This document shows, in pieces, positions 27,128-64,000 of a stretch of 64,000 nt of DNA; the stretch's first letter is position 1, and the number at the start of each line of letters is the position of its first letter. The stretch covers positions 10,912,001 through 10,976,000 of the forward strand of contig NC_058368.1 of the NCBI RefSeq assembly GCF_018350175.1, in the 5' to 3' direction. The DNA is from Felis catus (taxonomy: Eukaryota). Below the pieces are notes generated by a model that was given only the letters and a program-made list of their open reading frames with translations, ran no database searches and was not told where the DNA came from. A program made the position numbers and the translations under genes.

Positions 27128-30100
27128 AAATTGTGAGAGCCAAGAGTGGTTAGTCTGAGGCCAAACTATGAAGAAATGTATATGTATTAAAGAAGAATTT
27201 GAACTCCTTCTATTTTTGGTGTGAAGTCAGCATTTTTTTAAAGCGGTACTACTAACCTCATTTTCAGATGCAGAATTGGAGGTGGAGAGATGTGTGGTGA
27301 TTTGCCACATGATGCTGTTAGGAAGTGACAGATTTTTGAACCCATTTCGTGTGACTCCTGAAACAGGGCTTTTCCACACAAGGCTGTTCTGCTTCCCAAG
27401 ACTCTGCTCATCCTCACCATATCCACACAGAGTATGCCCTGCGAACCGTGTTGAGTAATAAAGACTGCAGGGGAGGAGCCAGTTCTGCTCTGCCTGCCCC
27501 TATCACACACCCGTGCCTAATACACATACACCCCCGCCTCACCCCACCCCCATACACCCCTTTCATCCCATGCCCCCCAAGAGAAAAAAAGGTACCGGTC
27601 TACCTGGCAAAGGAGAGCGCTGTGGAGGGCGATGCAGTGGGCACTGGCATCTCAACATACTTTGTTTTAGGCTCAGAACCAAGGAGTATATCTAGTGCCA
27701 ATAAAAATGTCAACCACGCCGCTCTTCACCTTCCCACAGGCTAGTGCGGCCTCAGAAAGCAAGGGTTACCAAAGTATTTTTTTTCTTCACACTCACCTTG
27801 GTAAAAGCACATTCCTGATCAGATAATTAGGCTCTGTAAAAGTGAATGCGAGAAAGAAAAATGCTTTTTTTCCTTGGTCTTCAGGGGAACCATTCTGTCC
27901 CTCATTAAAGATCCACTGTTAAAAAAAAAAAAAAAAAGACCCAGGATCTAGAAAGCCAAATCCTGTCTTCTGACACCATCCACGTAAACAAGTTTTCACT
28001 TCTGTCTTACTGATCTCTTCTTCCCTTTTAATGTCCCTGGTCTCCAAAATTAAAGAAAACCTAAAAATACCAGCGTGTTCTTAAGACCTATTGTTCTCCT
28101 CCCTGCACTTCAAAGTTACTGGAGACATTTTGCAGATTTGTTCAGTTTCTATGAATTGTTACCATATGAATCAGTAGAAGCAAAGAGCTGAAAAGCTTGA
28201 TGTGGAAGAAGTTTGCTGTATTTTGGCAGATGCTCTGCTGGATAGCAGCTAATAAAGTGCAAAGCCAGCTGGTGAGCCCTCCGCCTAGATGCTTCCCGAT
28301 GGGTGGGAGGTGACCTCTCCAGAATACACTGGAATTCGTTAACCACCATTTGGAGATGGTGTTAAGAATCCTCCCATGATCTGGTGCACATGAAACCTTC
28401 TTATTTTTCTGCAGCCCACTTATCCCTCCATGGATGCACATTTAACCCTTTGACAGAAATCCAACGCCGGTCGTAGAGATCAACGGCATAGAATTTCTTC
28501 ACTTTCACCACGCTCTTGACCTGACAAACCCATTTATTTTGAATTGATTTATTTTATATTTATAAAATACATTTAAATATTTGTATTTATTTTATTTTTA
28601 TTTGTTTTGACTCCCCGTTTACTCTTTATAACCTGTCTTTGTATGTCATTCTTGAGTCATGTTTTTCTACAGAGAGGATTTCCCCCTTTCCTCCAATAGT
28701 CGCTACTGCATGCATAAGGAGGAGACGTGAGAAATGCTGGCAGATGTCTGGATATTTATTATTAATTTGTATTAGCTACGTGGCTGCTCAGGTTTTTTTA
28801 AGGAAATACAAAGTATACAACTTGGAATGCATCTACTGAAAATCTACCCATTTTCATCTGAAATATATTAACCAGCAAGATAAAGTAACTTCCTCAAAGA
28901 CACAGGTAAGGATTTGAGTTTGGTCGAATATGTTTCTAGAACCAGATGATTCTCAGATTACTCAGAATAAGAGTCAAAACTAATGAACGCCTGTCTAATA
29001 TTTTAAGCAGATGTTTGTTTTATCTAGAATTCAGAAGTTGACTATCTATGGTATTTTTTATGGGTGAAGATGAGATATTGATTACCGAGATAAACCAGAG
29101 ATAAATAAACACAGTTATGCAAAATTTCTTCTGATATAAATAAAATGAGATTTGAGTTTCTGCTTTGTAGCCCGAAGCCATATATGTAATAACCTTTTGA
29201 AAGATTTATTGATCCTTCTGGGAAAAAGTAATTTTCCCCAGAAACTAAGAAATAGTATCTTTTGTTTATTGTGGAGAGAGCATCTGTTAATTACGATTTT
29301 TCTCTTAATTCAGAAATCTTTAAATGAACAAAAAGAGGGCATTTACCAATAAGAGAAACATTAAGGCAGTAGATAAATGAGCAAAGAACCTGACCAGAAA
29401 ACACGTAAAGGAGAAAATATGGCCAGAGAAATGGGAAGGAAAAAATAATGGTTGAAAGTTATTGACATAATTATTCAAGGAGAAAACTGCATTTTTTTTT
29501 AGCAAAACACTGATGGGCCACTTTGGGTTGTGAAAGACAGTTGTAGGCCAATGCCAAGTGGAATCGAGAGGGGGCTAGAGGCAACAAAGGAACACAGCAC
29601 AGGGCTGGAAGGAGAGAAGGGGGTTTGATGAGGTGTGGTCTGGAAGAGGTTGCCTGGAAGACGCAGGAAGCTGGGATCTGGAAGGAAAGTCGGTGAGCTT
29701 CCAGAAACAGGAATAGCTGTGTCCTTTTACAAACAGAGATGTCCACTATTCAACTGTCAGGGTTTTGCCATGCTAAGAGGTTTTGTTTACTTGCAAACTC
29801 CACCCCTCTTTTGCTGTCCCCGGTATGAGGAGCCTTTGAGGGAAATGAAGAAGGGACGGTGTGATCATGGAAGGTTAAGAAATGGGGGGCGGGGGAGACT
29901 GACAATTCTGTCCATTCAGGAAATTGACACAAGAAGTGCCTGGAAGAAAAATAAGACCCTCAGATCTCCAGACTTGTCCCGGCAGACAGTGGGTTTCTAC
30001 CACCCAAGGGAATTGAAACTATTTTATTTTAAAAATAATGAGAACAAGGTGAAACTAGCAAACAGGAGAACTTGCTAACACTCCTGCAAGCTAATGTGAC

Positions 30101-31494
30101 CCCTTCTTTCTCAAAAGAATAAAAGACACACAAATTAAAATAAGCAGCAGGTACTGTTTTAGCTACCAAATTAGGGAGGAAGAACGGTAATGATGAGCTC
30201 GTCTTGCCATTTTGTACCTTCATTTATCATTGATAGCACTGTAAATTGGATCGACCCTTTGGAAAGGCAAGTTAGCAATTATACATCAAGAGACTTCAAT
30301 ATGTCGATATGCGTGGGCCAGTAATCACACTGCGGGACCAGATTTTAAGATTATCCAAATACAAAAATGGCATCACTGTTTTAAACAAGTTAATCATCGG
30401 AAATGATATATTTTAAGGTAACTGTTGGATCCACCTGACCTGCCTGCTTCTCTGCCAAGCCCCACTAAAATTGCCAAAGGGGCGTTTTATTTCCTGAAAG
30501 AGAAAACCCTGTGTCAGTTCTGAAAACTAGGAACATTATTATAAGGCGGGAAATAATGCTGAATAATTTCCAGACCGTAGAGTGGTAGCCAGAATGGACT
30601 GCTCGCATTTGGACATAAGCAAAGGAGGAAACCCACCTAGGAAATGAGTGGACAAGGGTCCCTCAGAGAACCTCAAAGGCCAAGGAAGCCCAGGCCATCA
30701 GTTACCCCGTGAAGTGCGGAGGTGACAGAAGGATACAGTGGAGACCAGCCCAACTGCACCAGTTTCCTGCCTCCGAGTCCTGGTACCACCTCTGCCCCGT
30801 TCTTCGCGGATAGTCAGCAGCATCCTCCTGATGGTGGCAGTCGCTTAATGAGAGGAAATGAGGGTCCTACCCAACTCACGTGGGGTCTGCTCTACCCCGT
30901 GGGGGCGTGGTGTCAACCCGCCCCCGTGCCCCGCAGGGACGTTCTGCCCCAGGGCAGCTTCGATACCCCCTCCCCTCTGCTCCTCCTCCCGCTCCACGCA
31001 CACCTTCTGCAGGCCAGCAGGTCAAGTCAGACCCCATTCCTGGACCTGACAGCCCCCCAGGCCGGGAGCGGCCCCTTCACAGCTGTGCCTGCCAACGACC
31101 CATCCGTCCAGGACAACACTTCAGCCGGTCAATGGTTTCCTGTAGCTCATTTTACATTAAGGTGTAAAAAAGAGGGGAATGGCGAGGAGGAACCCAAAGT
31201 GCAGGTGTAATCAGGAGTGTGGGGTGAATCGGCCAGTAGACAAAAAATGGGCCCATTGCACAGAGGAGCAGGGGAGAGGGGAGCACGTGCACAGGGGAGC
31301 AGGACCCTCTAGGACTTAACTTCTATCTCTCCCGAGTTGTGAAATTGCCGAGCCAATCAAGTGCACAGGTCCCCGCAAAGTTCAACAACCTGTGAGTCTT
31401 CTAGACCGGGAATCTGAGAAGGTGTTTTGCAAAAATATTTCTGCAGATATTTTGAGGGTCAGAAGGTCTCTGTCTCAACAACTCAGCTCTTCCC

Positions 31495-31700
31495 AGGCGA
31501 GCGACGACCGGGGCAGCTCCCCCAGGGCTCCCTGCTCAGAAGGACCCTGTGCTTGGGATTTAATGCTCTGAGCTCCCAGTCTCGACAGTTTTCATGATTT
31601 TATCTTTGAGTTTGTGTTTCATAAATGAAGTCCCAGGGGACATTGGAGCACGTGCTGAGGACGTGGAACTTGCTCATGCGAAATATCGCCTCTTGCAGGC
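31495..31700 (+). mobile_element. hAT-Tip100 fragment (Zaphod/MER115/MER91-like)
   Basis: GCTCAGAAGGACCCTGTGCTTGGGATTTAATGCTCTG...TTATCTTTGAGTTTGTGTTT...TGAAGTCC..GGGACATTGGAGCA. Confidence 0.6.
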
Positions 31701-32174
31701 TCCCAGCCTCCTGTTCCTTTCAGGCCAAATAAGGAAAATGGCATATGATTCCAAGCTGGAAATTGACTCTAAGTGTTTCTAGCCATTTCCTCCCCCTCCA
31801 CTCCATTTGCTTATACTTATTTTCCTTTCCTGGCAGCAGACTATAATTCTCATCTTAATCCCATCCGACCTATGTTCTATCTGCTGTAATTGTTTTCAAG
31901 TTTGGTTTTCAACTTTGATTTGTACGTGTGCTGCGTGTATATATATGAGCGTTTGTAACAACATGGACGTAAATTTTTAGAGGATTACTTTCATAGATGT
32001 TTTCCTTGTGTCTTATGTCATCACTTTTTACTAAGAAGATCATCCCAGGCTTTCTAGTCTGTTCTACATGCAATCCCCCTCTTCTCTCACCAGCAGCAAA
32101 TGGGTTTCGAGCCCATGGGACACGGGTGAAGAGAGGCTCCAAGTAATCGGGCCAACCTGGCTTCACAGCGGATT

Positions 32175-32365
32175 AGCTGTCAGGTCTTCAACGAGTTAGT
32201 ATTTAACCCCTTGAATTCTGTCACCTTTGTAAAATATGGATAATAATCGTGCCTATTTCATAGCATTATTGTGAAGATGAGATACACAACGTACAGAAAG
32301 TGTTTGGCATAATGCTGAACGCATCCTAAGTGCTCAACAAGGGTTAGAGCATCATCATCATCATT
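32175..32365 (+). mobile_element. MIR
   Basis: TGTAAAATATGGATAATAAT..GCCTATTTCATAG...ATTGTGAAGAT core. Confidence 0.7.
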
Positions 32366-32389
32366 AGCCTTCTTTAAAATGGATTTCAA

Positions 32390-32607
32390 GGGGCGCCTGG
32401 GTGGCTCAGCCGGTTAAGCGTCCAGCTTTGGTTCAGGTCATGATCTCATGGTCCGTGAGTTTGAGCCCCGAGTCAGGCTCTGTGCTGACAGCTCAGAGCC
32501 TGGAGCCTGCTTCAGATTCTGTGTCTCCTTCTCTCTCTGCCCCTCCCCCATTCATGCTCTGTCTCTCTCTGTCTCAAAAATAAATAAACATTAAAAAAAA
32601 ATTTTTA
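32390..32607 (+). mobile_element. Can-SINE
   Basis: TSD AATGGATTTC. Confidence 0.95.
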
Positions 32608-33054
32608 ATGGATTTCCAAACTTGGTAGTTCGCTTCATAATTCATCTTTTGCAAGTAACTTTTGCTACTTAGTTTTTCAATAATTCACAATCCATTTGTA
32701 AAGTTCCAAACATTTATTGGGATTTTTTTTTATCATAAATGTGTTTACCCTCTGAGATAATAGGATCATCATCCTTAAATAAATCAGTATTTCTACCTGA
32801 GGACACTACAGGTCTCTCCATTTATTCAATTTCTTCCATCTATTGGGAAAATTTTGTCATTTTCTTTATATTGGGTCCTAGACTGTATGCAGGACGGACA
32901 TTTATCAAGGAGAAGCCCATTGTCCATGTAAGGGGCAAGATTTAGCATCATGCCAGGTTCAGAGGAAAGACGTCACCATGAGGACCCATTTAGAGGGTCC
33001 GGGGTATGCAAGCTCTGAGAAAGGTTCATAACTACAGACTAAATGTGTGCCTCT

Positions 33055-33229
33055 GACATGTGACAATAAATACAAGGAGAAGATGGCCATCTGAAAACCA
33101 GGTGGCAGGCTCTCATCAGACACCTTGATCTTGAACTTCCCAGCTTCCTGAACTGTGAGGAATAAATGCTGTTGTTTAAGCCACCCAGTCTGTGGTGTTC
33201 TGTTATGGCAGCCCAAGCAGGCTAAGACA
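33055..33229 (+). mobile_element. MaLR LTR 3' half (MLT1A-like)
   Basis: CACCTTGATCTTGAACTTCCCAGC...AATAAAT...TTTAAGCCACCCAGTCTGTGG...CTAAGACA. Confidence 0.8.
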
Positions 33230-35104
33230 CTTGTCTTGCTTCTTTTTGAAGTTTCCCTGTTCTCCCAGCCTTCTGTGCATTCCCGTCAGATGTTAGCTGG
33301 GTCCGCAATTGTGCCTGAGCCCGTGTGGGGGCAGCACAGCCCCGCCCAGCCTGGAGAAGCCTCCTGAGGAGGCTGTAGAAGACTGTTGCCAGGCAGGCCC
33401 AGACATAGGTCATCGATTGGGTGCCTATCAGGATGGATTTCTGGAAATGTAAATACAGAAGCCTTTACCCTCCTACCCTGCCTCTCAATTCAGTTGCGGA
33501 TGTCATAGACAGGAGTAGAGACCCCTGACAGACACCAGAGACATTTTAAGTTAAAGGCAACACTTTTGGCCATGGGTTCTGTCCTTCTCTTTGCTTCTCT
33601 CCCTTTATGAATGGCCTGAGGCGTGGAAGGTGTCCCACTGGTTTCATTCGGGAGATCTGAGGGTTGGGTAGTACCCCACAAGAGAGAAAAATTGAAACTG
33701 GCTATTTGCTTGCTCTGAGCCCAAGGGGGAGCAGAAGGAATGAGGCAGAGAATCTGCTTCCATTCTGTATTATAGAGGGTATCTGGAGAGAAAAATGAGG
33801 ATCCCCAGTGCAGGCACTCAATTGACTTTTTGACAAATTGAGATGAAGCAATCTTGTCATGGTTTAGAAATGGCTCACTCCTGCGTGCTTCAGGATGAGG
33901 AGAACACTGGTGCTGGGGCCTCCTCTCAGGCCAGGACCAAGGTTTAAGTTGGTGAAGCTTCTTCCCCTTCTCTGACTTCCTGACTACCCCTTTGAGATCT
34001 GGAGGTCTCAGATTTTATCCAATTCTCAACAGGACTCGTGGAGACACTTTTAAGGCTAAGCCAGGTCTACCCCACTCGTTCACCTCAGATTTACGGTCAA
34101 GTGTAGGTTGTGGTTCACATATTTGAGACAAGAGCTCTCCCCCTGGGGATGTTGCCACACACATCCCATTGTGAGTTTTGTACACATCCACTCACTGCTC
34201 TGCTCTCCTGCCCTCACAGTGGGAACTGCTGCCTTGGCAAGGAGAAGTCCCAGGTAGCTCCCTGTCCAAGGCCAGCTTGCCGTTCCCCACCATGTGTCTC
34301 CTCATGGGCAACCAATGTGCTGAAGGGCAGAATCTACAGCTCACTTGCTGCAGTGGGTACTAGGTCAGTGACCAAGGCTGCAAAGTGCCCTCCCCAGCCA
34401 TCCAATAGGTCAGTAAGGGGGGATTCCCAATCTGATATCTGTTGTTTCTTTCCTCTATATCCTCCCAAGTGTGGGCCTGTGCATAAATTTAGGATCTGTA
34501 GCTGAACGTAGAAGCATCAAGGAATATCAAGCACCAAAGAGTGGAAGATGTAATCCAGGGTAGGGAGAAGGCATCCCCTTGTCTAACAAACTGAAGCCCG
34601 ATTTCTAGGGCTTTCTTATCATGAAATGACTACATGAATATATCCTTCCAAAACAAATATCCACATTAATATAGAACCTGGGAAAAGGATCTTCTTCCAC
34701 ATTCTTTAGGGCCCCCGGTACTATTGCAGGCCTTATGGCCCTGTTCTGAATGGCTAACTTGACTTCACACTGCTAATTAATGTAGTCAATGCAGAGCCTG
34801 CCGCAATTCTTGGGGAATGTGAACTGCAAGGTCTGACATAGATTGTTGGCCAGGCCAATGCCCTAGAGTCTAGTCGATGTCCAAGGACGTGAAAAGGGCA
34901 TGTCTCCCTTAACCACTCTTCTGGCCAAGGGAAACCCCTTTTGGGTGTTTGGGTGAACACCTTTTTGGGTGTCTCCCAGACAGCAGAGCTCCCCTTGGCA
35001 AAAGTGAAATCACTCTTGTGAAAGGGGACAGAGCAGAGTAAGTGCTCACTGAACCAGGCCCCACACATATACCACAAATGTTGATGCTGCAAAGGGAAAG
35101 GGTG

Positions 35105-36805
35105 GCTGTTTCAAAAAATGGTACCAAGTCAAATGAACATTATATAGGCAAATAAATGAATTTTAACCTCTGCCTCCTACCACACTCAAAAATCAATTCC
35201 AAATTTATTGCATATCTCAGTGTAAAAGATTTTAAGAAAACACGGGAGTATGTCTTCATGACCTTGGAGTAGGCATAGATTTCATAAATAGTATGCAGAA
35301 ATTGCTAGCCATAAAAGAAAGAAAAATAAACTACACTGAAGTTAAGAACTCCAATGTGTCTAAGAGTATCATTGTGGGAGCAGGGAGGTCAGGCCACAGA
35401 CTGCTAGAGGATGTATAAAGTGCTTAGTCTAGAAAGGAGACTATTCGGAGAATATTAAAAGTACCTACAGATAGCGAGAATTCTATCCGTTTCTTACTAT
35501 CACTGTGACAAATTGCTATACTTAGCGGCTTAACACAAATGTATATATTATCTTATAATTCTGGAGGTTAGATGTCCTAAGTCAGTTTTGCTGGGTTAAA
35601 CTCAAGGTGTTAGCAGGCCTGTGTTCCTTTGGAGGATCTAGAGGAGAATTCATTTCCTTACTTTTTCCAGCTTCCAGAGGCCACCTGCACTCCTTGGCTC
35701 GTGGGCCCATTCCTCCATCTGCAAAACCAGCAGGGTAGCCTCTAACCTGTGCTTCTACTGTTAGATCTTCTTTTTCTAACTTTGATCCTCCTGCCTCGCT
35801 CTTATCAGCACTCATGTGATTATATTGGGCCCAACTGGATAACCCAGGATAATCTTCCCATCTCAAGAACTTTAACTTAATCACATGTGCAAAGTCTCTT
35901 TCCCAATGAAAGGTAGCATACTCACAGCTTCAGGGGATTAAGGCATGGGCATCTCTAGGAGCCATTAGTCAGTTTACCATAAGAGAATATACACCCAGAG
36001 GAGAGGTCAACAGGAGAGCTGGGTGGGTTACAGGAGAGGATATCCAAATGGCTATTAAGCAAAGAAGTTATCAAGGAGGTACAGATTGAAGAGTTCACCA
36101 GGCACCAAGACTGCCCCACAACCAAAACAGCTAAAATCAAACAGAGAGACGACATTAGGTATTGATGAGAATGTAGAGCAGCTAGAGCAGTGGCACTGTT
36201 GGGAGTCAAAGGATTGGAACCATCAATAAGGAGAACCCTTTGTCACCATCTACTGGATTCAGACATGCACATAACCTGTGGCTCAGTAATTCCACTCCTA
36301 AGTATATACACAACTGTGTACATATGTTTGCTAAAAGACACATCCACAGGTATTCATGGAACCACTATTTGCAATGGCCACAGAGATGTCCATCTGTGAT
36401 GGGTGATGGATGACTTTTGATAGTGTCTTATGGTGAAAAACAATGAAGAATAAAGTTTACTTGCATTCCTCAGCACGGATAAATTTTAGAGATGTGATGT
36501 TGAGTGAGGAAAGCTGTTCCCAAGGAAATATGTCCATCATTCCATGTGTATGGAAGAAAAGAAGAGGCAAAACTAATGTATGGTTTCGGAAGTCAGGATG
36601 GTGGTTGCCCTAAGTGGCGAACCATGACAGGAGGGAGACGCAGGACAGGGAGGTCTCTGGTGCAGTGTTCTGTTTCATAATCTGTGCACAGATCACATGA
36701 GTGTATCCACTATAAGAAAATATATTCAGCTGTGCGATTATAATTTGCATACTTTTTTACATGTTATACTTTAATAATAATATTTACAAAAATAAAATAA
36801 AATAA
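35105..36805 (+). mobile_element. Old L1ME-like 3' remnant, interrupted by an MLT1D
   Basis: AAAATCAATTCCAAA; TCTTCATGACCTTGGAGTAGGC; CAGTAATTCCACTCCTAAGTATATAC; GAAGTCAGGATGGTGGTTGCC. Confidence 0.7.
35482..35981 (-). mobile_element. MaLR solo LTR (MLT1D-like)
   Basis: TTTTCCAGCTTCCAGAGGCCACCTGCACTCCTTGGCTCGTGG; TTGGGCCCAACTGGATAACCCAGGATAATCT; TTAACTTAATCACAT. Confidence 0.85.
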
Positions 36806-36953
36806 AACCAACTTTGGGAGAGTTTTTCTTTCCTGCTTCTCCACTGCAACATGCATAGTTACAAGCCCTTGCCCTCTGACTACAAAGGTCTGGAGGAGTT
36901 GAACAGCTGTCTTCTGTCTTCCCAACTTCCAATCAAAGATCCCCAAGCAATCA

Positions 36954-37690
36954 GGGCTTCCAAATTATTGTATCTGGCTTTTACTTAATCAATAAATTAG
37001 TGGGAGGGGAAGCCAAGGCTCTAAATGGTGCATTAGACCTGAGATAATGACTGGTCCAATCCAGGAAAATCTGCAGCTGCTTCTCTGTTTTCAGACTCCC
37101 CCATTTGTAAACAGATTCAATTCTGTCCCTAAGGAGTGATATTGTGACCTATCATATACCTCAGGCAATCCAAATTACATGCCTGGGTTTCATCATTAGC
37201 CTGGACTTCCATAGTTCCAAGTCATCCAGATGTTTTCCCATATTTTGGATTAAAAAATGTAATATTGTCTACATACATAATCATAATGGATTCCATTTCC
37301 AGCAAAAAATTATGGACCAGCCCCTGCAAGGTGGTTAGAGCTTTGCTTATCCAGAAAGGCAAATGCCTTAAAGTCATAAAATCCCTCTGGATCAACCAAA
37401 TCATCTTGGCCCTGTTTTCTGGACTTACTTCTACTTTCCAGAATCCTTTCTTCAAATCTATACCTTTGATCACCTTACTGGACCCTGATGGTCCTTCCAG
37501 ATAATAAGTTCTAAACATGGAGAAGCCGTATGGTTTATTAACAGCATATGTTCCCTGTTGTCGTCACTTACACATTGGCTGCTTTGAGCACCCAAGCCAC
37601 TAGCAAAGTGCCCAAACTCTCCAACTAGAGATGTCATTCTCACATACCAGCATGCCAACTTTTTCTCTTAATATTCTACAGAGTTCTTCA
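36954..37690 (-). mobile_element. Ancient Ty3/Gypsy LTR-retrotransposon pol remnant (reverse transcriptase plus thumb/connection), MamGyp-like
   Basis: Minus-strand translation gives colinear Gypsy RT blocks across frameshifts: AVNKPYGFSMFR; IDLKKGFWKVEVSPENRAK; LPFWISKALTTLQGLV; YVDNI (YVDN at 37264-37275); DRIESVYKWGSLKTEKQLQIFLDWTSHYLRSNAPFRALASPPTNLLIK*KPDTIIW. Confidence 0.88.
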
Positions 37691-37739
37691 TTTGCTCATG
37701 ACATCACTTAGTCCCTCCACAAGTAATTTCTTGAGAGTC

Positions 37740-38060
37740 TACTGCAGCCCAGCATGTTGTAGGCCCTGGGGACAGGTAATGAGGTAAATAGTCACAGACT
37801 TGGCCTTGTGACAGAGAGAGGGGACAGACAACGAAAAGATAAATACATGATATGATTGCAGGTGGAGGCAAGGCTAGGAAGAGGTAAAGCAGAGTGAGGG
37901 GAGGTGGCAGGGTGGAGTTTGATATTTTGGGCAACCTAGTCAGAAGGGCCTCTCTGAGCATGGACCTGAGTGAGGAGCTTCAGTATCCAGTATCTGGGGA
38001 AGGAGCATTCAGGTAGAGGAAGAGGTGGAAAGTCTGAGGAAGGAGGAAGTTTGACATACC
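37740..38060 (-). mobile_element. L2 remnant abutting the Gypsy fragment
   Basis: TAGGCCCTGGGGACA...GTCAGAAGGGCCTCTCTGAG...TCTGGGGAAGGAGCATTC. Confidence 0.6.
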
Positions 38061-40258
38061 CAGATTTGCCTCCCGGTATCTGGCCTATCGGTCACCAGTG
38101 GGTTCCAAGTTTTACCCTCTAAAATAACATATAGCCACATGCCCTTTATCCTCTTCTTGGCAATTTGCTCTCCAAAGTGGGTTTTTTATTTTAACCTGAA
38201 GTTACCATTTCCAGAACCAGGTCATCTGAGGAGTATGGCTGGAAATGCCAGCAAAGATCCCTTCATCGTTGCCTACCGAGCCCTCCTTTGATGGCAGGAT
38301 TTAACCCTCAGCACAGGGGGTTGTATAAATCCATTCTTTGGAGAGCCACTAATAATAACAAGCTCTTTCTGGATTGCGGCTTTGGGCGCCTAATGCCCAT
38401 GCCTCAAAAGCCAGGAACATGTAACAGGATGGAACAGAGACCCCAGCCTGAAATTGGATTCTGGTCTACCTATGTCAAACAACTTGACCTCTTTTTGCCT
38501 CCGTTTCTTTATTTAGAAAAAGGGAATAGTGATAGAAACCCCCTCTTAGGATTGCTGTAAGTAATGCAAATGCTTAAAATTATGCCTGGCACAAAAGAAG
38601 AGCTTCATAAGTGTTAGTTTTTGTTGTAACTATCACTCCCTGTCCTAACCATATTCTGCAGTGCTTCTAGACACATCTTTTCAAAATAAGCTGTATGATT
38701 ATCAAGCTCATTATAAAAAGTGGGAAAATACAGAAACGTGTAATAGAAGAAAATTAAAATAGTCGATAATTTCATCACCCATTGGGATTATAATTTCAGT
38801 TCTTTCCAGTTTTTTTCTTCCTTGTACATATCCATGCTGTTATTTTATTTTAAAAAATTTAGATCATACTGCCTAAATGTATTTACCTTTCTTGTTCCAC
38901 TTACCACGAACGATGAGTATCTTCCAGACCCTTAAGTATTCTTTTTTGACACAATTTTTAATAGTTGCGTAACATCCCTTCCTACATATTCATAATAGTA
39001 TTTACTTCATGGGGTTGTTGTGAGGATTAATGATACATACAAACAAGAGTAGTAAAATGTGGTTAGAACAGCACCATTTTCATATAATAATAAATAAATA
39101 GTAGCTAAAATAAATAGTAGCTAAAAATAATAATGGTAATGATGCTGAAACCACATTTGGGGGTGAATTAACATATTTCTGGTTATAACCAGACATTTTC
39201 TGCTTGAGCAGGACAGACAACACCCCTCGTCACTTGGTGTCTATTTGTACACAGCATTTTGGTTGTGTGAGTGGACAGCAGGGAGACGCTTAGTTTGAGC
39301 AGGAATTTGAGGGGAGGAAGGCGTAAGGGGAGGAAGGGTGGCAAGGTGTCTATTGCTATAGAGCCTCATGAACTGAGTTTGAGCCTCTGCAATCAGAAGA
39401 AAGAGCTGCATAACCATTTCCATGAGAGATGGCATGAGGGTCCCAGCAGTGTGAAGCCACCAGCTGATTGTATGTTTTCCACTGAAAGAGGCTCTGAGGA
39501 CAGACACAGTTACTTGGAAAATAGGTGTCCACGTGTGGCACATGGTTCTGGGGAGCTGTCTTCTCCTGACCTCCCTGTGGAGCCCAGCTCTGCTCAGAGT
39601 CCCTAATGTTCATGACATCTGGAGCCTCCTCAGAGGGCAGCCTCCCTAGCAAACCATTGGTGTCCTCACATTGGCTTCTTAGCTGCGGCTACCTTGAGAA
39701 TTCCAAATGACTTCTCAGGTAATTGAAGTTAAAAGCAGGGGAGCCAGAGGAAAAGGAAGCAAGGATATATTACTTCTGGAACAAATGTAGGACACTCAGG
39801 AGAGGAAGACCATCTAGAACCATTTTAAATATTGCCTAAGAGGACAGCCAGGAAGAATGAGCCATCCAATTCTCAGCAGCCAGTGGAGAAACCCCAAGTG
39901 GTCAGTCAGAGGAGACTGCACAGTTATTATGACCAAGTGTTGCTGATGGGGACCTCTGAAAGTCACCAAAGAGTCACCTTTGCTCACTTGCCACCCACCA
40001 CACCCAGAGAATCAGTTTTAAAATCGACCAAAGAGAGAGCCAAATCTTAATTGAATGAATACAAATCAAGTAAGAGCTTTCCTACTTCTCACCTTTCTTC
40101 CATGGGCTCCACTTAGACCCTGGATGGAGTAGAGAGAACACCAAGGACCAGGCAACTGTGCAAAGAGACAGAGACATTCTAGATAATGGAAAAGAGAAGA
40201 GGTTGATGATGTCCGTGATGTTGAATACAAAAGTGGCATGGCATTCTCTCTTTGCAAC

Positions 40259-40653
40259 TGTTACGGGCTGAATTGTTTCTCCCGTTCCAAAAACATTCAC
40301 ACATTGAAGTCCTAGCCCCCTAGTGCCTCATAATGCGGCAGTTCTTGGAGACAGGGTCTACAAAGAGATAATTAAGATTAAATGAAATCATTAGAATGGG
40401 CCCTAATCCAATATGACCAGTGTTCTTATAAGACGAGGAAATTTGGACATAGATATGTACAGAGGGAAGATCATGTGAGGCCACAGGGAAAAGATGGCCA
40501 TCTATAAGCCAAGAAAGAAGTCTTAGAAGAAACCAACCCTGTTGACACCTTGATCTCGGACTTCCACGTTCCAGAATTGTGAGAAAATAAATTTCTAGTT
40601 TTTAAGCCACCCAGTCTGTAGTGTTTTTATGGCAGCCTTAGCAAACTGGTTCA
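40259..40653 (+). mobile_element. MaLR solo LTR (MLT1B-like)
   Basis: TGTTACGGGCTGAATTG start; CCCTAATCCAATATGAC; GAAAATAAATTTCT...TTTAAGCCACCCAGT; ends in CA. Confidence 0.88.
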
Positions 40654-41463
40654 GCTGCCCGGGATCACTTAGATTTGGGAAAATGATTTATGCCTTTGAA
40701 GAACTACTTTGTAAACCTATATTAATATCCTACAATGTTCTGGAACTTAATTTGTAAATAAGTCTTCTAATGTTGGCTGCATTTCCCCCCCGAAGTCAAT
40801 CGAAAAATCTTCAATCAAAGGGTTTTAACAAATGAAGTGCCAAAAATACCAGCTTTTGGAGATTCTAGTGAATTGCATTTATTGAAAACAAACTTTCTGG
40901 ATTTTCCTTTATCAAAGCCAACGAAAAGTGAACATATTAAAGAAGAGCCTCGATCATGCACAAGATTTCATTTTGAAAGTTTATAACCCAGTTTTGGAAC
41001 ATCTTGACTTATGGGCAGAATCTTTTAATGGAGCTCTTTTATATTTTAATTGGATAATATTTATGTACTACATCAGGATTAAATGAAATTGAGGAGGAGT
41101 ATAATTTTTCTGCCCTAAAAACAATTAGCAAAACAATAAGAATCCTAGAGACAATTTGCTTAATAAGCTTTGTCTTGTAAAAATATATGATAAAGAAATA
41201 TAGCTCAATGGAGACCAAAGAATAATACCTATGAGAACATTTGGGCTGAACTGTACATTGCAACATTAAAAATAATAAGTCTGAATCGAATATACTCTTC
41301 ATTTGGCAAAATTTTCTCTGAGCTTGCCGCTTAGCGTGTTTCCTTTGTCCTCCCTTCCCCTACTCCTACCCTTAGGTTGTTACCAACAAATTCACCAATT
41401 TTAAAGCCTGAAACCAAGTTTGGGATCCTGCTTTTAAATGAGCTATTTGGTTTCCCAGAAAGG

Positions 41464-42298
41464 TGTATAAGGGTAACCGTGAAAAACACACAGTGTTTTC
41501 CTTCACTCTCAAACTCACAATACTCCTGATACCAGATGTGTTTTTCTCCCCATATCTACCAATTCTCCCACACCAACTGGGTATCATACAATTCAATTTA
41601 AAAAAATCATTTCTGACTCTAACTGGAGTTAACCTAGATCCCACAAGTTAAGGGCTTAATCCCACCAGACTGATCCCTACCTCAGATGCCAATCACCAGT
41701 ACTAGGTCCCTAGGTTACTCACAATTTCTGTTCAACTTGGCTACAGATGAGAGCATCCCATGACCCTCTCCTCAGGTTCAATAATTTGCTAAAGCAGCTC
41801 ATAGAACGCAGGAAAACAGTTCACTTGTTATTGCCAACTTACTACAAAGGCTATTTTAGCAGATAAAATTGAACAGTAAGATGGAAGGGATATGTAGGGT
41901 GAGGTCTGGAACGGTTCCAAACACAGGAGCTTCTGTTCTGGTAGAATTGGAGTATGCCACGCTCCCAGCATGTGAATGTATTCACCAACAGGGAAGTCTC
42001 TCTGAACCCTACACTTTAGGGACTTTTACAAAACTGTCATCATGTAGAAATGATCAAGTATTAACTCAATTTCCAGCCCCTCTTCCTTCCCCAGAGAACA
42101 GAAGGACAGACCAAAAAGTCTAAGCTTCTAATCATAGCTTGGTCTGTTTAGTGACCAACCCCCCTCCAGGACCCACTGAAAACCACTTTATTAGAACAAA
42201 AGACACTCCAACCAACTGGGGAAATTACAAGTTTGGGGAGCTCTGTGTCAAGAACCAGAGGCAGAGACCAATATATATTTATTTCTTGTTATTTCACA
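41464..42298 (-). mobile_element. ERVL solo LTR (MER21-like)
   Basis: TG...CA termini with perfect 5-bp TSD AAAGG (41459-41463, 42299-42303); CAGATGCCAATCA and ATAATTTGCTAAAGCAGCTCATAGAAC motifs. Confidence 0.85.
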
Positions 42299-42336
42299 AA
42301 AGGTTTGTCCCAATCTCATTTTCACTAGTGCCTGCC

Positions 42337-42719
42337 TGTTACAAGCTGCATATATCTCCAAAATTCATATGGTAAAGTCCTAACCCTCAGTACCTCAGGA
42401 TATTATAGTATTTGAAGGTAGGGTCTTGAAAGAGGTAGTGAAGTTAAAATGAGGACATTCTAGTAGGCCTTAATACAATATGATTGGTGTCCTTAAAAAG
42501 AGACTATGAGAACATAGACACACAGAGGGAAGACCAGGTGAAGACACAGGGAGAAGACATCCATGTACAAGCTAAGGAGAGAAGCCTCAGAAGTAACCAA
42601 TGCTGCCCACACCTTGATGTCATATTTCTAAACTCCAGAACTGTGAGAAAATAAATGTCTGTGGTTTAAGTCGCCCTGTCTGTGGCACTTTGTTATGGCC
42701 GCCCTGACGAACTAACACA
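42337..42719 (+). mobile_element. MaLR solo LTR (MLT1B-like)
   Basis: TG...CA termini with perfect 5-bp TSD CTGCC (42332-42336, 42720-42724). Confidence 0.9.
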
Positions 42720-44999
42720 CTGCCACTGTGTCTCAAATAGTTTTGTTACCTACTGCTGGCTTTAAACCCAAAGTCTGTGACTCTACAGGCATTTAGTTGG
42801 TAGGATATTTTATTATATTGTGCTTGGGACCAAGTCGAGCGGGTACAAAGAACTTCCCTGAAAGCTACATGTGGTGTCCTTCCTCTAACAAGAGATGTCT
42901 GCCTTCTGCTCACACCCAGATCAGCTGATTGCTCTCGAGCCGATGTCCTTACTAAGAACATCGCACCAAGCTCCTAGGTGTTGTTGGTGTTTTTATATAG
43001 CTTGTTTTGTTACCTGGCAGATGAAACCAAAGACCCTCTCTCTTTCCTCACAAACACATAACACTTCCCTTGGAAGTGTCTTCATTGTTGCCTCTTTAAA
43101 TTTTTCTTGCTCCCTGTATGTGTCCTGTGGGGGTAAAAATCCTGTTTGTTTGTTTGTTTGTTTGTTTGTTTTTATGGTGAGCTATGATTTAAAGAAGGAT
43201 CCTCTACCTCTGCTTCCCCTGTCTGTCTGGTAACTCCTAAAGGTTTTCTTCTGGCCATTCTCCTAGCTGCCCTGTCCTCAAATGTCACACTGGGCCAGAC
43301 TGGGCCCCATTCCTCCTTTCAGAACCAGCACACCCCCTTGGCCCTCACACTGGTTTGGGCCTGGTTCTGCCCCTTGTCCTGGGCTCTGGATTTCGCCTGT
43401 GTCCCACAGTGTTTCCTCTGTTCCCCACGCTGGAGCTGTTGCTTCTGCAAGGTTTCCTGAGAAGCCCATTGCTCTGTGTCCCACCAGTGAATCTCAGACA
43501 AGGGGATCACTGGCAAGTGAGGGAGAGAGTCTTCTCTTGACTTTGCTTCTCTAGTTATTAGGAGGTCTACTGGCATCCCCGGCTTGCTAATGCTTCTCTG
43601 CTCTTCATTTGGGCACTGCTGATCTCCACATGTTCACTGAGTATGAGAGCAGGTGGTTTTTTGCCTCTCTGCCCATCAGATGTTGAGAACAGGAAGGCTC
43701 CCTTACCTCCACACACCTCTGCCTCTTAAACCAGTCTCCAGGCCATTTTTTCCTTATCACAGACCCCAGGGATTTGTTCCAATTGCTTCCCTCTTTCCAG
43801 ACATCCTGATTTTCACTCTTTACCCCTCCTCAGGACCAACCTATAAGGTAGAATTCATATTTCGTGATTCCTCCTTCTCACCTTGTTCCTTTATATACTT
43901 TTCCCATTCATCCTCCCATTTCAAAGAACTCTTGTTTCACACTTATTTTACAACTAATAACACAGGAAAATGAAGACTTTGGGGAAGAATGCAATTAATT
44001 ACAAGAAATGCCACAATATACATAAGATTTCTTGCCCTTATGTGTCCCTCCCCAAGAACCCCATGTCGAGTGGTATTAGGGAAGATCTATATGGCCTCTG
44101 CCCCAGTGAGCCTATCAGCAATCTTCGGTACATTCCTGCTGTAGAATGAAGATAGGGGGTAATCACATCTGTTCCACGTGACACTGAGGGATGCTAGATG
44201 AATCAAAGGAGAATATGTATTTGAAATTGATTTGTAAACTATAACCATAAAAAGTTCTATTCGGATATTTTGGATATTTGGTTTCCAAAACAGGGCTTAC
44301 CCACGGGGAGAAAAATGTGTTGACATTCCTTGTCCACATGATTTTGGCAGTCATTTTCCTCATTAAGAATGATGAAGTTGGCTTTCTGCCTCAACTTGAA
44401 TTGCAGTGGGTTTGGGAAGCGTTCTGTTTCCCAGGGCATGTGTGGTCTAAGTCGTTTCAACCACAGAAGTGTTAGGTTTCATTTTGGCCAAGCTGGCAGA
44501 CCAAACAGAAGTCAGTCCTTTCCCACTGCAACAGGGAAATAATTATAAAACATGTATCTTTAAAATGGGTCAAGTGCATTGGACAAGGAACTGAGAATGG
44601 GCAGTGGTGAAATGACCTTGAACAAGCCATCTGAACTCTATCAGCCCTAATTTCTCGCCCATAAAAAACTCAGTGAATCATACCAACCCTGCCTATTTCA
44701 GAGTTGTAATAAAGATTAAACGAAGGCTGCAAAAACACTTTGCAAACTATGAAGTGACCTGTGGAAGTGAAGTGTTATCAGTTATTAAATTTATGATGAT
44801 AAAACTGAATTACTGATTAGGATATAATCAAATTCAAACCTAGTTGAAAAGGCAGGTTTAAAGGCACTCTCTCATTTACTACTCATAATAACAAGTTCCC
44901 AAGATCAGGGAAAGGTCTCCAACTTTTATTCTTCAAACTTGAAATCAGCTATGATCTTTAATATTACAATGAGCACATAATTACAGAGGAATAACTAGT

Positions 45000-45770
45000 C
45001 AAGTCACTAAATTCACTGTAAACATTGAAGTCTCTGCCATTGGTAGCTTAGAATTTAGGAGAAGAATGCGAACATATAGGCAAAGGAACAGATAACATCA
45101 CAAAATTATATAGACAGCAATGAGTTATATATTACAGACAAAAATTACCATAAGAGGAGGGAGAAATCTATGTGAGCTGGGAAATCTGGAAAAGGTTCAA
45201 GGAGAAGGTAGCAGGATGTTTACTAGATCTTCCAGGACACATCACACGTATGTGGACAAACATAGATTCTTGGGCAACCACTGCAGGCAAGGAGAAGGGT
45301 ATGTGAGCAACAGCCTATAGGTGAAAGATCGTGGGTGTATTTGAAATACATTAAGGTAGACTGGCAGGAGTGAAGGAAGCATGAAGTGGCCAGTGGTAAA
45401 TAGGGTTGGAGAGAAAGATTTTAAAAGCCAGAATAAAGGTATCAGATTTAATTATGACGGCAATGGGGAGTGATGGAAAGTTTTGACCCAGTGTGTCAAA
45501 TGTTATGTCAGGGTGGATAATGTAAGAGTGAGAGAGACTGCATTAGAGAGGAGTGATGCAGCTTAGTTAGGAACCCTTTCTAGTGTGTAGATGTGACAGT
45601 ATATGAGCTTGAATGAAAGGAAGATATTGGAAAAGGAAACAAGTAAATGATGGCAAGATCATCAGTCAAAGACAAAGCTGGCACTCAAACTGAGTCAAGG
45701 CTGGAAATCCAGATTTGGAAGGGATGATGGCTGAATCTATGAAAATAAGTAACATTTACTAGACAAAAGC
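45000..45770 (-). mobile_element. L2 remnant
   Basis: GGCAATGGGGAGTGATGGAAAGTTTTGA and related purine-rich motifs; very degenerate. Confidence 0.45.
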
Positions 45771-48356
45771 CTAGAGATGGGAAGACTGAGGGTAAAGGTA
45801 AACCTACAGGAGCTGGAAAAAGAACAGCAAATAAAGCCCCAAACCAGCAGAAGAAGGGAAATAATAAAGATTAGAGCAGAAATCAATGATATTTAAATTA
45901 AAAAAAAAAAAAACAGAACAGATCAACGAAGCCAAGAGCTGGTTCTTTGAAAGAATTAACAAATTGATAAACCCCTAGCCAGTTTGATCAAAAAGAAAAG
46001 GAAAGAACCCAAATAAATAATGTCACGAATGAAAGAGGAGAGATCACAACCAACACTGCAGGAAAAAAAAACAATAATAAGAATATTATGAGCAATTATA
46101 TGTCAACAAATTGGCCAATCTGGAAGAAATGGACAAATTCCTAGAAACATATAAATTACAAAAACGGAAACAGGAAAAAATACAAAACTTGAAAAGACTC
46201 ATAACCAATAAAGAAACTGAATCAGTAATCAAAAATCTCCCAACAAACAGGAGTTCAGGGCTGATGACTTCCCAGGGGAATTCTACCAAATATTTAAAGA
46301 AGAGTTAATACTGATTCTTTTGAAGCTGTTCCAAAAAAATAGAAATGGAAGGAGAATTCCCAAACCCATTCTATGAGGACAGCATTACCATCAATTCCTA
46401 GATGAATTGTTTCCAAAACCAGATAAAGACCTCACTAAAAAGGAGAACTATAGACCAATTTCCCTGACGAACATGGATGCAAAAATTCTCAACAAGTTAC
46501 TAGCAAACCGAATCCAATAATGCATTAAAAGAATTATTGACCACGATGAAGTGGGATTTATTCCTGGGCTGTAGGGGTGGTTCAATATCTGCAAATCAAT
46601 CAGTGTGATACATCACATTAATAAAAGAAAGGATAAGAACCACATGATCCTCTCAATAGATGCAGAAAAGGCATTTGACAAAATACAGCATCCTTTCTTG
46701 ATAAAAACCCTCAAGAAAGTAGGGATAAAGGATCATACTTCAAGATCATAAAGGCCAAATACAAAAAACCCACAGCTAGTATCATCCTCAATGGGGAAAA
46801 ACTGAGAGCTTTCCCCCTAAGGCCAGGAACAGAACAGGGATGCCCACTCTTACAACTGTTGTTCAACATAGTGTTGGAAGTCTTAGCCTCAGCAATCAGA
46901 TAACACAAAGAAATAAAAGGCATCCAAATCAACAAGGAAGAAGTAAAATTTTCACTTGTTACAGATGACATGATACTCTATGTGGAAAACCCAAAAGACT
47001 CTACCACAAAACTGCTAGAACTGATACATGAATTCAGCAAAATTGCAGGATATAAAACCAACGTTCAGAAATTGGTGGCATTTCTGTACACCAGTAATGA
47101 AGCAGCGGAGAGAGAAACCAAGGAATCAATCCCATTTACAATTGCACTGAAAACCATAAAATACCTAGGAATAAACCTAACTACAGAGGTAAAAGATGTG
47201 TATACTGAAAACTATAGAAAGCTTATGAAAGAAATTGAAGAAGTCACAAAGAAATGCAAAAACATCCCATGCTCGTGAATTGAAGAACAGATCTTGTTCA
47301 AATGTCGATACTACCCAAAGTAATCTACACATTCAATGCAATTCCTATCAAAACAACACCAGCATTCTTCACAGAGCTAGAATAAACAATTCTAAAATTT
47401 GTACGGAACCAGAAAAAAAAAACCCTGAATAGACAAAGCCCTGTTGAAAAAGAAAACCAAAGTGGGAGGCATCATAATTCTGGACTTCAAGTTGTATTAC
47501 AAAGCTGTAATCATCAAGACAGTATGGTACTGGCACAAAAACAGATGCATAGATCAATGGAACAGAATAGAGAACCCAGAAATGGACCCACAAATATATG
47601 GCCAATTAATCTTCAACCATGCAGGAAAGAATATCCAATGGTAAAAAGTCTCTAGCAAATGGTGTTGAGAAAACTGGACAGCAACATGCAGAAGAATGAA
47701 TCTGGACTATGCTCTTACCCCATACACAGAAATAAACTCAAAATAAATGAAAGACTTAAATGTAAGACAGGAAACCATTAAAATACTAGAGAAGAAAATA
47801 GGCAACAACCTCTTTGACCTCGATCATGGCAACTTCTTATTAGACATGTCGCTGGAGGCAAGGGAAACAAAAGCAAAAATGAATTTCTGGGACCTCATCA
47901 AGATAAAAAGCTTATTCTCAGTAAAGGAAATAATCAACAAAACTGAAAGGCAACTGACTGAATGGGAGAAGGTATTTGTAAATGACATATTGGATAAAAT
48001 GTTAATATCCAAAATTATAAAGAACTTACCAAACTCAATAAACAAAAAAACCCAAATAATTCAGTGAAGAAATGAGCAAAAGACATGAATAGACACTTTT
48101 CCAAAAAGACATCAAAATGACTAACAGACACAAAAAAATATGCTCAACATAACTCATCATCAGGGAAGTACAAATCAAAACCACAATGAGATCCTACCTC
48201 ACACCCGTCAGAATGGCTGAAATTAACAGCTCGGGAAACAACAGATGTTGGTGAGGGGGCAGAGAAAAGGGAACACTTTTGCACTGTTTGTGGGAATGCA
48301 AACTGGTGCAGCCACTCTGGAAAACAGTATGGAGGTTCCTCAAAAAGTTAAAAATA

Positions 48357-60206: not shown

Positions 60207-60214
60207 GAAAGAAA

Positions 60215-60291
<77 letters not shown>

Positions 60292-60292
60292 A
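60207..60292. repeat. (GAAA)n tetranucleotide STR, 18 uninterrupted units from 60218
   Basis: Direct reading. Confidence 0.97.
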
Positions 60293-60677
60293 CAATGAAA
60301 ACTCTGTCTCTTATGATGAGTGACCACAATGGCCAGCCATCACTGGACAGTTTTTCAAACAGCGTTGTTAATGACACGATTAATAACGACATGTAAGAGA
60401 ATCCCTATCATTCACTTACAAAATCCTCCATCCAAATTAGGACTACAAGCTGTTTTATATATGTCTACATAGGCATTTCCTAGTCAGTGAAACTCTGACA
60501 ACAAAATTCTACACTGAAGTTTTGTAGAAATCTTTCTGATTATGCGAGGATCAACCAAAAGTCCCTTCCTATACTTGAATTTGCACTAACTGTGCTGTCT
60601 TAGAAGCCACTTTCAGGATGTAAGAACTAAGCTGTAATTAATGTTTTCTGATAGGCATGCAACACCGCATTGAAAGC

Positions 60678-61189: not shown

Positions 61190-61397
61190 AAGATAGGCTG
61201 CAGAGTGACAAGACCTTCTCCCCTCAATGCCAGTAAGGTTCTAGCTCTGAGCATGCTCAGACACATGGGAGGCACCGAAGTTACTATGTCAGAACTCCTT
61301 CAGAGATATAAGGAGGATACATCTAATACTTCAATTGCTGAAAACCTATTGTTATTTTTCTGGTATTAAACATCTCTTCAGCCTCAGACTGATTGCA
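61190..61397 (+). promoter_or_regulatory. RXFP2: RXFP2 proximal promoter / 5'UTR
   Basis: Repeat-free sequence directly 5' of the ATG. Contains palindrome TCTGAGCATGCTCAGA (61246-61261), TATAA (61307-61311) and SOX-type CCTATTGTT (61345-61353). TSS cannot be fixed from sequence. Confidence 0.6.
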
Positions 61398-61440
61398 ATG
61401 TTCCTTCTACTTCATTTCATCATCCTGATAGATGTCAAAG
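61398..61440 (+). CDS. RXFP2: RXFP2 (relaxin family peptide receptor 2 / INSL3 receptor) first coding exon, signal peptide
   Basis: ATG TTC CTT CTA CTT CAT TTC ATC ATC CTG ATA GAT GTC AAA G|gtaagt = MFLLLHFIILIDVK plus a phase-1 donor. In-frame upstream [10 protein letters not shown]. Matches my recollection of the human N-terminus (...[25 protein letters not shown]). Too short for the ORF track. Confidence 0.93.
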
Positions 61441-64000
61441 GTAAGTCTGCTACTTTCTCGCTTAAATGAGTGCAATTCCAAAAGAATAGAAAATAGACTA
61501 TTTCTATTTAGTTCTAGCATATTTATAATAGACTCATTGCAGCGTTTGAGAAACAGACATCGAGTTTACGTTGTCATTGTCATCACCACTAATTGCTTGT
61601 AGTCCCATCCTAGCAATTTCTAGCAGCAACAAATTTTTCATGGGAACTTGCTTTTGTGTGTTAGTAAAATTGTAGGTAAAACATTTTTTAAAAACCAATG
61701 TGGAATATATCAATTATAATGGCGAAAATAGTTCTTAGTATTTGTAAAGAAAAAAAAAAACACAAGCATGACAAATTAAAAAATTAAAATTTTGCCTTAT
61801 GAAATTTCAACCTGTTGAAATATCTTCATAAAATGTATGTAATTGTTAGTTGCTATGTTTCGTTGTTAACATAGCTGAACTGGGAACTGCCCAAAAAAAA
61901 AAAAAAAAAAAAAAAAACAAAGAAAAAAAGAAAGAAAGAAAGAAAGAAGGAAAAGAAAAAGCCACAAATCTAAAAATCAGAATCTCTCCCTTAGAGCAAA
62001 CCTATGTAAAATAAAATCATTAAAAATGTACAAAAGGACTCTCCTTACTGGTTTTGATTTTAAACATTTTAATTTCATCCATATTTATAACTTGGCATTT
62101 TTCTTAGGAAAAAAATTAATATTCACCTGGTGTTAAAGAAAAATATACCCTTGTTTTATTGTGAGCTTGTACACTTGTATCTATTTATTATATCCAAAGC
62201 ATGTTGGGTTTATTATTATTCAAAATGTGTCTAAGTTCCTAGTCTTTCTTAAAGAATTTTGATAAACTTCTGAGAATAAGAGTTAGAATTTGAAATTATT
62301 TTTGTTTTCTGAGAAATTGGTTTTAGGTTTCTAAAATACTCAGTTTTCATTAAATGAACTCAATTGAGTATTTTTAATCTTGAAATAAAATGCAGTTATT
62401 TATGAACAATTATTTACAAACTTCTAACAAATAGAAGATTTTTAAAGTATTTCAGTTTTAGTTTGAATTTGAAATACTAAAATTTTCTTCAGATTATTTT
62501 AAAGTATTAACCTAATACAGTTAGCATGATTTTTATTTTGCATTTTAATCTCCTTTACATAAAAATTTAAGTTATCATTTAAGTGTTGCCTTATGTGTTT
62601 CTTAAAGACAAGGAATATATGAACTCACTTGACATGAAATATGTTTGTGGAGAGCAGTCTATTTCTTTGATTTAGGGTCTTCCTTCAATTTATATCCTAT
62701 GCACATCTGTAATATTAAATTTTATATGATTTTTAAGAATAAAAGTTAAAAAGAAGGTTCTTGGATCCAATACACTTTGTAGAGGTAATCTGTACCCTTA
62801 ATTCCTTACTGTACAGGAATTGCAATATAGTTAACCAGTTTTAATAGAATATATGGTATAAAATATATATATGGTATAAAGGATATGTATAAAATATAAA
62901 GTATAGTATTGCTTGTGGTGATACATTTAATTGACTTTGTGAACAAAATTTTTATGAGATGAAAAACATCTATTACTGAAATAGTGTTTTAAGGTTTACC
63001 ATAACGTAATGGTGTTCTTTAAACTAAAAAAGAAAGGAAAGAAATTTTAAAGAGATGATTTGGGTTTATTTCTAAGCAAATGCCATGTTTCAGATCCACA
63101 GTCCAACCTGATAAATATTTTCATTGTAATTCCTTGGAAATTTTTATTTTCCAATTGACCTTTCATTTCAATTGCTAGTTTAACCCTTTCTTTTTAACAT
63201 TATTTTCAAAGCTAGACATGTTAATCCTTTGATATCTTATTCCTATTTATAAAGATAATTATCATTTGCTATATAATTAGTGGAAGGTTTCACAATAAAA
63301 TTATAGACAGTTAAAGTAGTTCGGCTATAATAAAGAAAATCATCCGGAATTATATAAGAGCACAGATTGCTTCTTAAATTTACATAAATAGGTGTCATAA
63401 TTTTTTAGGTCAGACCTAAACAAAAGGAAAAGGCAGACATTATGTTTTACCTTTTCTCTTCTGGCCATCATCACCCTTGAGTGTCTAAGGGACTAGTGAT
63501 ATTGGCTAACAAGCTACAGACATTAACTGATGAGTAAAGATAACATATCTTATTATAACTTTGTACATGTATTTTATCATCAATTTATTCACTGGGTATC
63601 CTTGTTAATCAGACTCAAGCCACCTCCTCCCCAACAAGTTTTTTGTGGATTAATTACGGATAATATTACAAACCGAAAACATGGGTTTATATGAGAAATT
63701 AAAAGCATAAAGTGCCCACAATGCTACTGGGTAACTCTAGGTTGCTAGCTACTCAAAAAATTTGCTAACCTTCAAAAAATGAAGTCATTGAAAACAGGGG
63801 CCTAACATTTTGAAGTGAGCAGTATTTGACTGCCCCCTAATGGACAAGTTCAAAGCTCGCGTTGGATGCTCCTTTTTCTAAGAAATGTCGCTTCTACTTG
63901 GTTGCTGTCACTTGAGAAAAGGTTCTCCAACTAAATTTTAATTTCACACAATTACATCATGCTGCCGGTAGCTGTGAAAATCTATTATATTGCAGGCCAG
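61441..64000 (+). other. RXFP2: RXFP2 intron 1 (5' part)
   Basis: Consensus donor AAG|GTAAGT at 61441; AT-rich; no LDLa-module (CQKGYFPCGN-like) exon seen before the window end. Confidence 0.85.
61893..61960. repeat. Poly-A / (GAAA)n tract in RXFP2 intron 1
   Basis: Direct reading. Confidence 0.9.

Follow-up and report, generated by a model that had tools for sequence, protein, structure and literature searches.

Gmr1-like elements, a lineage of Ty3/Gypsy retrotransposons present in turtles, squamates, crocodilians and amphibians, have the domain order PR-IN-RT-RH, with the integrase upstream of the reverse transcriptase (RT), and are linked to the SCAN domain; a 2025 preprint describes them as depleted in mammals (bioRxiv 2025.03.03.638093). 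In a 2013 survey, none of the Metaviridae clades listed, Gmr1 among them, is scored as present in Prototheria or Theria, and Gmr1 does not carry the mark for remains there either (PMC3670739 Table S2); a passage of its text allows for rare fragmented Metaviridae fossils in mammals (PMC3670739). In the human genome, MamGyp-int and X1_LR to X4_LR are Gypsy internal relics (PMC5753468). Among the domesticated Metaviridae genes (PEG10, RTL1, PNMA, NYNRIN, GIN1, GIN2, KRBA2 and SCAND3), GIN1, GIN2, KRBA2 and SCAND3 were placed under Gmr1 (PMC3670739 Table 1), and a GINGER2 origin has been argued for SCAND3 and KRBA2 (PMC3575427). Mammalian Gypsy relics form a class that is rare but already known, and the notable point of the locus described here is its probable Gmr1 lineage, which the 2013 survey had scored absent from therians. 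No report specific to this locus was found in the literature searched, a scope outside which most subscription papers and the repeat databases fall, and passages of PMC9447858, PMC4350176, PMC5857283 and PMC13445738 contain nothing on it.

The window analysed, a stretch of 64,000 nucleotides from Felis catus, holds on its minus strand (37695-36960) about 245 codons of a Ty3/Gypsy RT, split over two frames and interrupted by several stops. Profile and frameshift-aware alignment place the whole recognisable relic, an RT domain probably from a Gmr1-like pol, at 36960..37695 (minus strand, about 735 bp). With Gmr1-like elements, examples of which are P0070 of Sceloporus and the Gmr1 sequences of Anolis and Chrysemys (PMC3670739 file S2), the relic shares the RT motif order, a lysine before G[YF]W and a P-x4-W linker, at best identities of 25-29%; unlike these elements, it consists of RT alone, with a broken catalytic motif, stops and a frame change. 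Like MamGyp-int and X1_LR to X4_LR of Repbase, it is a fragment of the internal part of a Gypsy element, lies in a eutherian genome and is old enough for other species to share it. The domesticated Metaviridae genes have their Ty3/Gypsy origin in common with the relic, but they keep open frames under selection, whereas the relic has neither an intact frame nor a sign of selection at the protein level. The best overall explanation is that the locus is a neutral molecular fossil of a Gmr1-like Ty3/Gypsy element, a reading to which we assign a probability of roughly 0.8.

The identity of the relic as an RT was assessed by family, protein and profile searches. An earlier note, made from the letters alone, had called the locus a Gypsy RT; HMMER and profile searches bore this out as colinear RT homology, and Pfam RVT_1 taken alone, the sole Pfam family matched by frame A, stayed below its cut-off (E 0.018, 15 bits against 29.6), with no Pfam match for frame B. 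A HMMER search of 1.84e9 representative proteins gave 65 matches at E<=0.001, three of which are near copies of the locus; RVT_1 was present in all 32 proteins scanned out of the remaining 62. The species named as sources of these relatives are turtles, a lizard, an alligator and a newt, and the top single-domain match is a turtle protein (P0017, Emys orbicularis). Two of the matches, P0062 and P0063, carry an integrase before the RT, and P0070, a cluster-mate of P0063, has the full order of SCAN, zinc knuckle, integrase, RT and RNase H. With P0063 as the query, 120 proteins of this kind were listed, and 41 of the 81 full-length ones were used to build five domain profiles. The RT profile from these 41 Gmr1-order polyproteins matched 37524-37240 (E 3.9e-13, columns 85-179) and, colinear with the first match, 37187-36975 (E 3.9e-5, columns 209-279); the lowest E-value of any profile in the reversed window, used as a control, was 0.097. 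Frameshift-aware alignment scored 71.2 over 37545-36984 with a single frame change near 37236, compared with a maximum of 18.8 among the other 63 of the 64 tile-strands. Searched against PDB sequences at E<=10, frame A had one weak match (8r0s, 'Enzymatic polyprotein', E 0.3) and frame B none. As judged from sequence, the locus is confirmed as a real, dead Ty3/Gypsy RT remnant.

All Gypsy RT peptides that the earlier note had read in order on the minus strand were found where it had placed them, in two frames, and the two stop-free stretches of 113 (37563-37225) and 55 codons were also as described. The N-terminal RT piece (37621..37695, minus strand, frame A, profile columns 29-53) is not significant alone, since 44 of 300 random stretches reach its score, and becomes significant once the match is confined to the colinear register (20 of 4924 as high). 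The fingers and palm core (37240..37545, minus strand, profile columns 78-179) lies inside the 113-codon stretch, and the thumb and the start of the connection (36960..37187, minus strand, E 3.9e-5) follow in frame B and end in KPDTIIW. Shorter minus-strand landmarks are REKVG (37668-37654), AVNKPY (37545-37528) and LPFW (37362-37351) in frame A and KWGSLK (37106-37089) in frame B. Two peptides on this strand hold characters of Gmr1 type: IDLKKGFWK (37435..37461), with a lysine before G[YF]W, and KPDTIIW itself (36980-36960, frame B), a P-x4-W linker. The catalytic motif reads YVDNI (37261..37275, minus strand), in which one of the two catalytic aspartates is gone. Together with three stops in frame A (37683-37201), six in frame B (37223-36909) and the frame change, this agrees with the earlier statement that no working enzyme can be made. 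The observed/expected CpG ratio is 0.07 in the relic and 0.27 in the whole window.

No significant signal for gag, protease, integrase or RNase H was detected in the window, either in six frames or with frameshift-aware tiles. Targeted searches for an integrase C-terminus or linker in 37700-38460 and for RNase H in 36810-36975, 34400-35100 and 33300-34400 gave background scores throughout, null stretches scoring as high in 139/199, 87/98, 76/199, 17/98 and 57/57 cases. No SCAN-like capsid or gag remnant was present, the top gag-profile tile (24.5 at 16776-17021) being a low-complexity stretch 20 kb away; a long GAAA simple repeat at 60210-60295, about 1.1 kb upstream of an RXFP2-like exon, is the origin of spurious low-complexity profile matches. 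Paired LTRs were not evident among seven two-copy families in 28000-46000. Two 63-base copies (33169 and 42659; 75%) bracket the relic but are part of a dispersed repeat, presumably of MLT1 type, that occurs once more near 40500. The 5' end of the relic adjoins a non-RT flank (37705..38050, minus strand), which we take to be the 3' end of an L2-type LINE and which served as the neutral control; the 3' side is bounded by a repeat at approximately 35090..36815 (plus strand), presumably an old L1-type 3' fragment enclosing an MLT1-type LTR, with no RNase H signal on either side. We take the SINEs of the window to be of cat type. Rfam gave no match in 33000-41000, nor did Pfam in six frames of 39250-40232 and 33300-35101. 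Elsewhere in the window, about 1 kb of non-repetitive-looking sequence at 39250-40230, both strands of which hold overlapping runs of 110-122 codons without a stop, resembles a processed pseudogene and lacks a Pfam match in six frames, and an L1 ORF2 remnant lies at 46400-48070 (plus strand).

Near copies of the locus in the protein collection (P0003, P0004, P0049 and P0041) are 68-82% identical to the window translation in their main alignments. P0003 and P0049 extend into a match with the non-RT flank at 37705..38050, and the four copies are therefore most likely orthologues from other mammals, to judge by their translations. A tryptophan stands opposite the window's TGA stops in P0003 (five of the six stops in its main alignment), in P0004 (its only one) and in P0049, and P0041 has a leucine; the tryptophans suggest that P0003, P0004 and P0049 are most likely read-through gene calls made under a TGA=W code rather than longer intact genes, in which case the breaks would be shared between copies. 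P0003 (292 aa) was considered as an intact orthologous gene and rejected, given these tryptophans, its crossing of the flanking repeat and a frame switch relative to the RT. In the three other copies that cover YVDNI, both catalytic aspartates are gone. Mammalian non-coding DNA can enter the protein collection as TGA=W calls, which may pass for intact orthologues of pseudogenes. None of 125 pattern matches to orthologous DNA in JGI metagenomes was confirmed. Five RNA runs (gut, mammal or feline metagenomes) hold 0.21-0.80 of the relic's words, possibly from host DNA, and are no evidence of expression.

Two characters of the RT were used as empirical markers of lineage, with no published clade definition behind them, and were scored in RT domains sorted according to domain order into 114 integrase-first, 26 canonical or tandem and 22 lacking an integrase. 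The tandem label covers three concatenated multi-RT proteins, grouped with the canonical ones, and this canonical set (26 rows, 14 clusters) contains no named Sushi, Barthez, Cigr2, Mag or retroviral RTs. A lysine or arginine precedes G[YF]W in 104/114 integrase-first and 4/26 canonical RTs (44/47 versus 3/14 after clustering at 70%), and the P-x4-W linker past the thumb occurs in 98/114 and 0/26, respectively (39/47 versus 0/14 after clustering). Both characters together, as in the relic, are found in 36/47 integrase-first clusters and 0/14 canonical ones. The exact form KPD-x3-W belongs to a subgroup made up mostly of turtle sequences (15/114 integrase-first RTs). Among the published reptile representatives in file S2 of PMC3670739, a comparison made by eye that excludes New Mag and SURL, the lysine before G[YF]W is present in 3/3 Gmr1 and absent from two Chromovirus, three Barthez, one Cigr2 and three Mag sequences, and P-x4-W is present in 2/3 Gmr1.

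Given that the locus is a Gypsy RT, it very probably belongs to the Gmr1 lineage. A rival reading, which we regard as unlikely, traces the same dead RT to a different Ty3/Gypsy lineage, such as an Osvaldo/Cigr2-like one, SURL or New Mag, and its two characters to convergence or decay artefacts. It gains from the loss of the integrase, which leaves the domain order of the relic unreadable, and from the canonical-order RTs P0023 and P0029 among the top matches. The trees bear on it in both directions. In a first maximum-likelihood tree (46/114 integrase-first, all 26 canonical or tandem and 9/22 other rows), the relic falls on the integrase-first side of a branch with support 100/99, on an end branch of 3.84 and beside another long row. 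In a second tree, restricted to the two significant stretches and with 28 near-identical or long rows dropped, no starred set contains the relic, and its highest identity in the alignment (28%) is to a canonical-order row. The relic forms a very long branch in the trees (2.97-3.84), and its nearest neighbours in both, neither of which contains a retroviral RT, are rows labelled integrase-first or rows on that side without a label; the AU test did not reject a placement with the canonical-order clade (p 0.377). Against a different lineage stand the joint distribution of the two characters over the clusters, their absence from the Cigr2, Barthez, Chromovirus and Mag representatives (PMC3670739 file S2), and the profile scores, which side with Gmr1 in every draw: each of 12 profiles made from a random draw of 26 integrase-first rows gives the relic a score of 65.9-72.2, compared with 62.3 for the canonical profile, whose rows were all chosen as matches of the relic. 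The Gmr1 resemblance proposed in the earlier note thus stands as far as its two signatures are concerned, both of which discriminate in our sets and in the published representatives, while placement in an RT tree amounts to a lean toward the integrase-first side. The link to the origin of SCAN domains that it also drew holds through lineage alone, because the relic itself has no SCAN or capsid remnant.

A second question is whether the relic, once dead, was retained for some other role. P0004 (core) and P0049 (flank) each lie on a 3012-base contig, taken as one and the same, which allowed a comparison at the peptide level for one pair of calls over 37557-37183. Identity to the window is 103/124 in the core and 95/115 in the flank (Fisher p 1.0), and simulating neutral change with about 0.09 substitutions per site yields identities of 0.82 and 0.83 that match both. 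Changes to P0004 have a mean BLOSUM62 score of -0.38, compared with -0.34 +/- 0.36 expected under neutrality; those relative to P0003 lie a little further to the conservative side than neutrality predicts (+0.26, about 1.6 SD). Just 6/15 strongly conserved profile columns are kept, and no intact frame under purifying selection was found, given the stops, the frame change and changes of neutral type. These values suggest that the relic likely drifts at the rate of the adjoining repeat, as an apparently neutral fossil. The earlier note had proposed that the DNA might be retained as a regulatory element and that substitution rates be compared with the flanking repeat; on the one orthologous contig, at the peptide level and for the core only, divergence is equal, and conservation of the RT core does not exceed that of the flank, which lends the proposal no support.

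That the relic DNA was exapted to enhance or silence the receptor gene at a distance of 23.7 kb, with selection at the DNA level keeping the RT readable, appears quite improbable in the light of this equal divergence, to which a single neutral rate fits. The relic is kept in at least three other database copies, but the same copies also keep the flanking repeats, so that its retention is not special. The 375-base core has no frame break relative to P0003 or P0004, compared with about five breaks or gaps within roughly 540 flanking bases, a contrast (p ~0.07) that was counted by hand and is biased, the query being the longest open frame. The depletion of CpG, the lack of an Rfam match around the relic and the papers found to mention RXFP2 together with upstream enhancers and transposable elements, none of which concerns this locus, also argue against a regulatory role. 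That the 113-codon stretch encodes a domesticated small protein is barely credible. Besides the window, two other copies have the stretch open, and a 98-aa gene call for it exists (P0069), but when neutral drift is simulated at the fitted distance, 26-31% of runs gain no new stop across 111 codons, or 41-47% under the TGA=W code (simulation without indels), and the search itself selected open copies. Radical changes pile up in the stretch, P0003, P0004 and P0049 are the likely read-through calls described above, and a search of 5.8e9 proteins returned only two matches, one of them the window's own.

On the preferred reading of a neutral Gmr1-like fossil, a Gmr1-like Ty3/Gypsy LTR retrotransposon would have entered an early mammal's germ line before the compared lineages diverged. 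The element probably died early: none of the four copies spanning the catalytic motif has it intact, and the stops appear shared at the protein level. Later LINE insertions and deletions may have removed or scattered everything other than the roughly 735 bp of RT, the rest of the element being absent, and CpG was lost almost completely, as would be expected of a methylated repeat. The remnant, which makes no working enzyme and is presumably inert at present, would then have drifted at the pace of the adjoining repeat, as it does at the peptide level on the one orthologous contig. It would still be readable because RT is the best-conserved domain and because turtles, lizards and amphibians are rich in its close relatives. 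An RT remnant that can be dated would seed a search for an extinct mammalian Gmr1 family and would bound its last activity. That this is a neutral Gmr1 RT fossil hitherto uncatalogued in placental mammals is a tentative suggestion, toward which we do not lean. It is highly improbable that an uncatalogued Gmr1 RT remnant has had its core DNA kept free of indels as a cis-regulatory element of RXFP2; if true, this would be physical evidence that the SCAN-donor lineage was still inserting on the mammalian stem.

The relic had been placed about 24 kb upstream of RXFP2. The distance holds, at 23.7 kb from the relic to a signal-peptide-like hydrophobic exon recognised by its translation (61365..61442, plus strand), a neighbour outside the relic that ends at a GT donor and is presumably the first coding exon of RXFP2. 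No bearing of the relic on RXFP2 regulation is demonstrated, and its exaptation for this gene is without support in the sequence comparisons; RXFP2 has 0 occurrences in the four searched supplements of PMC3670739. The segment 30600-31200, which precedes the RXFP2-like exon by about 30 kb, has a GC content of 0.59 and a CpG observed/expected ratio of 0.46, and on composition alone would outrank the RT relic as a candidate regulatory site. In the RXFP2-like exon (61345-61442), the first in-frame ATG lies near 61398 and the open frame begins further upstream without an ATG. The human RXFP2 protein presumably starts with a longer leader, and the start is possibly shifted in this lineage.
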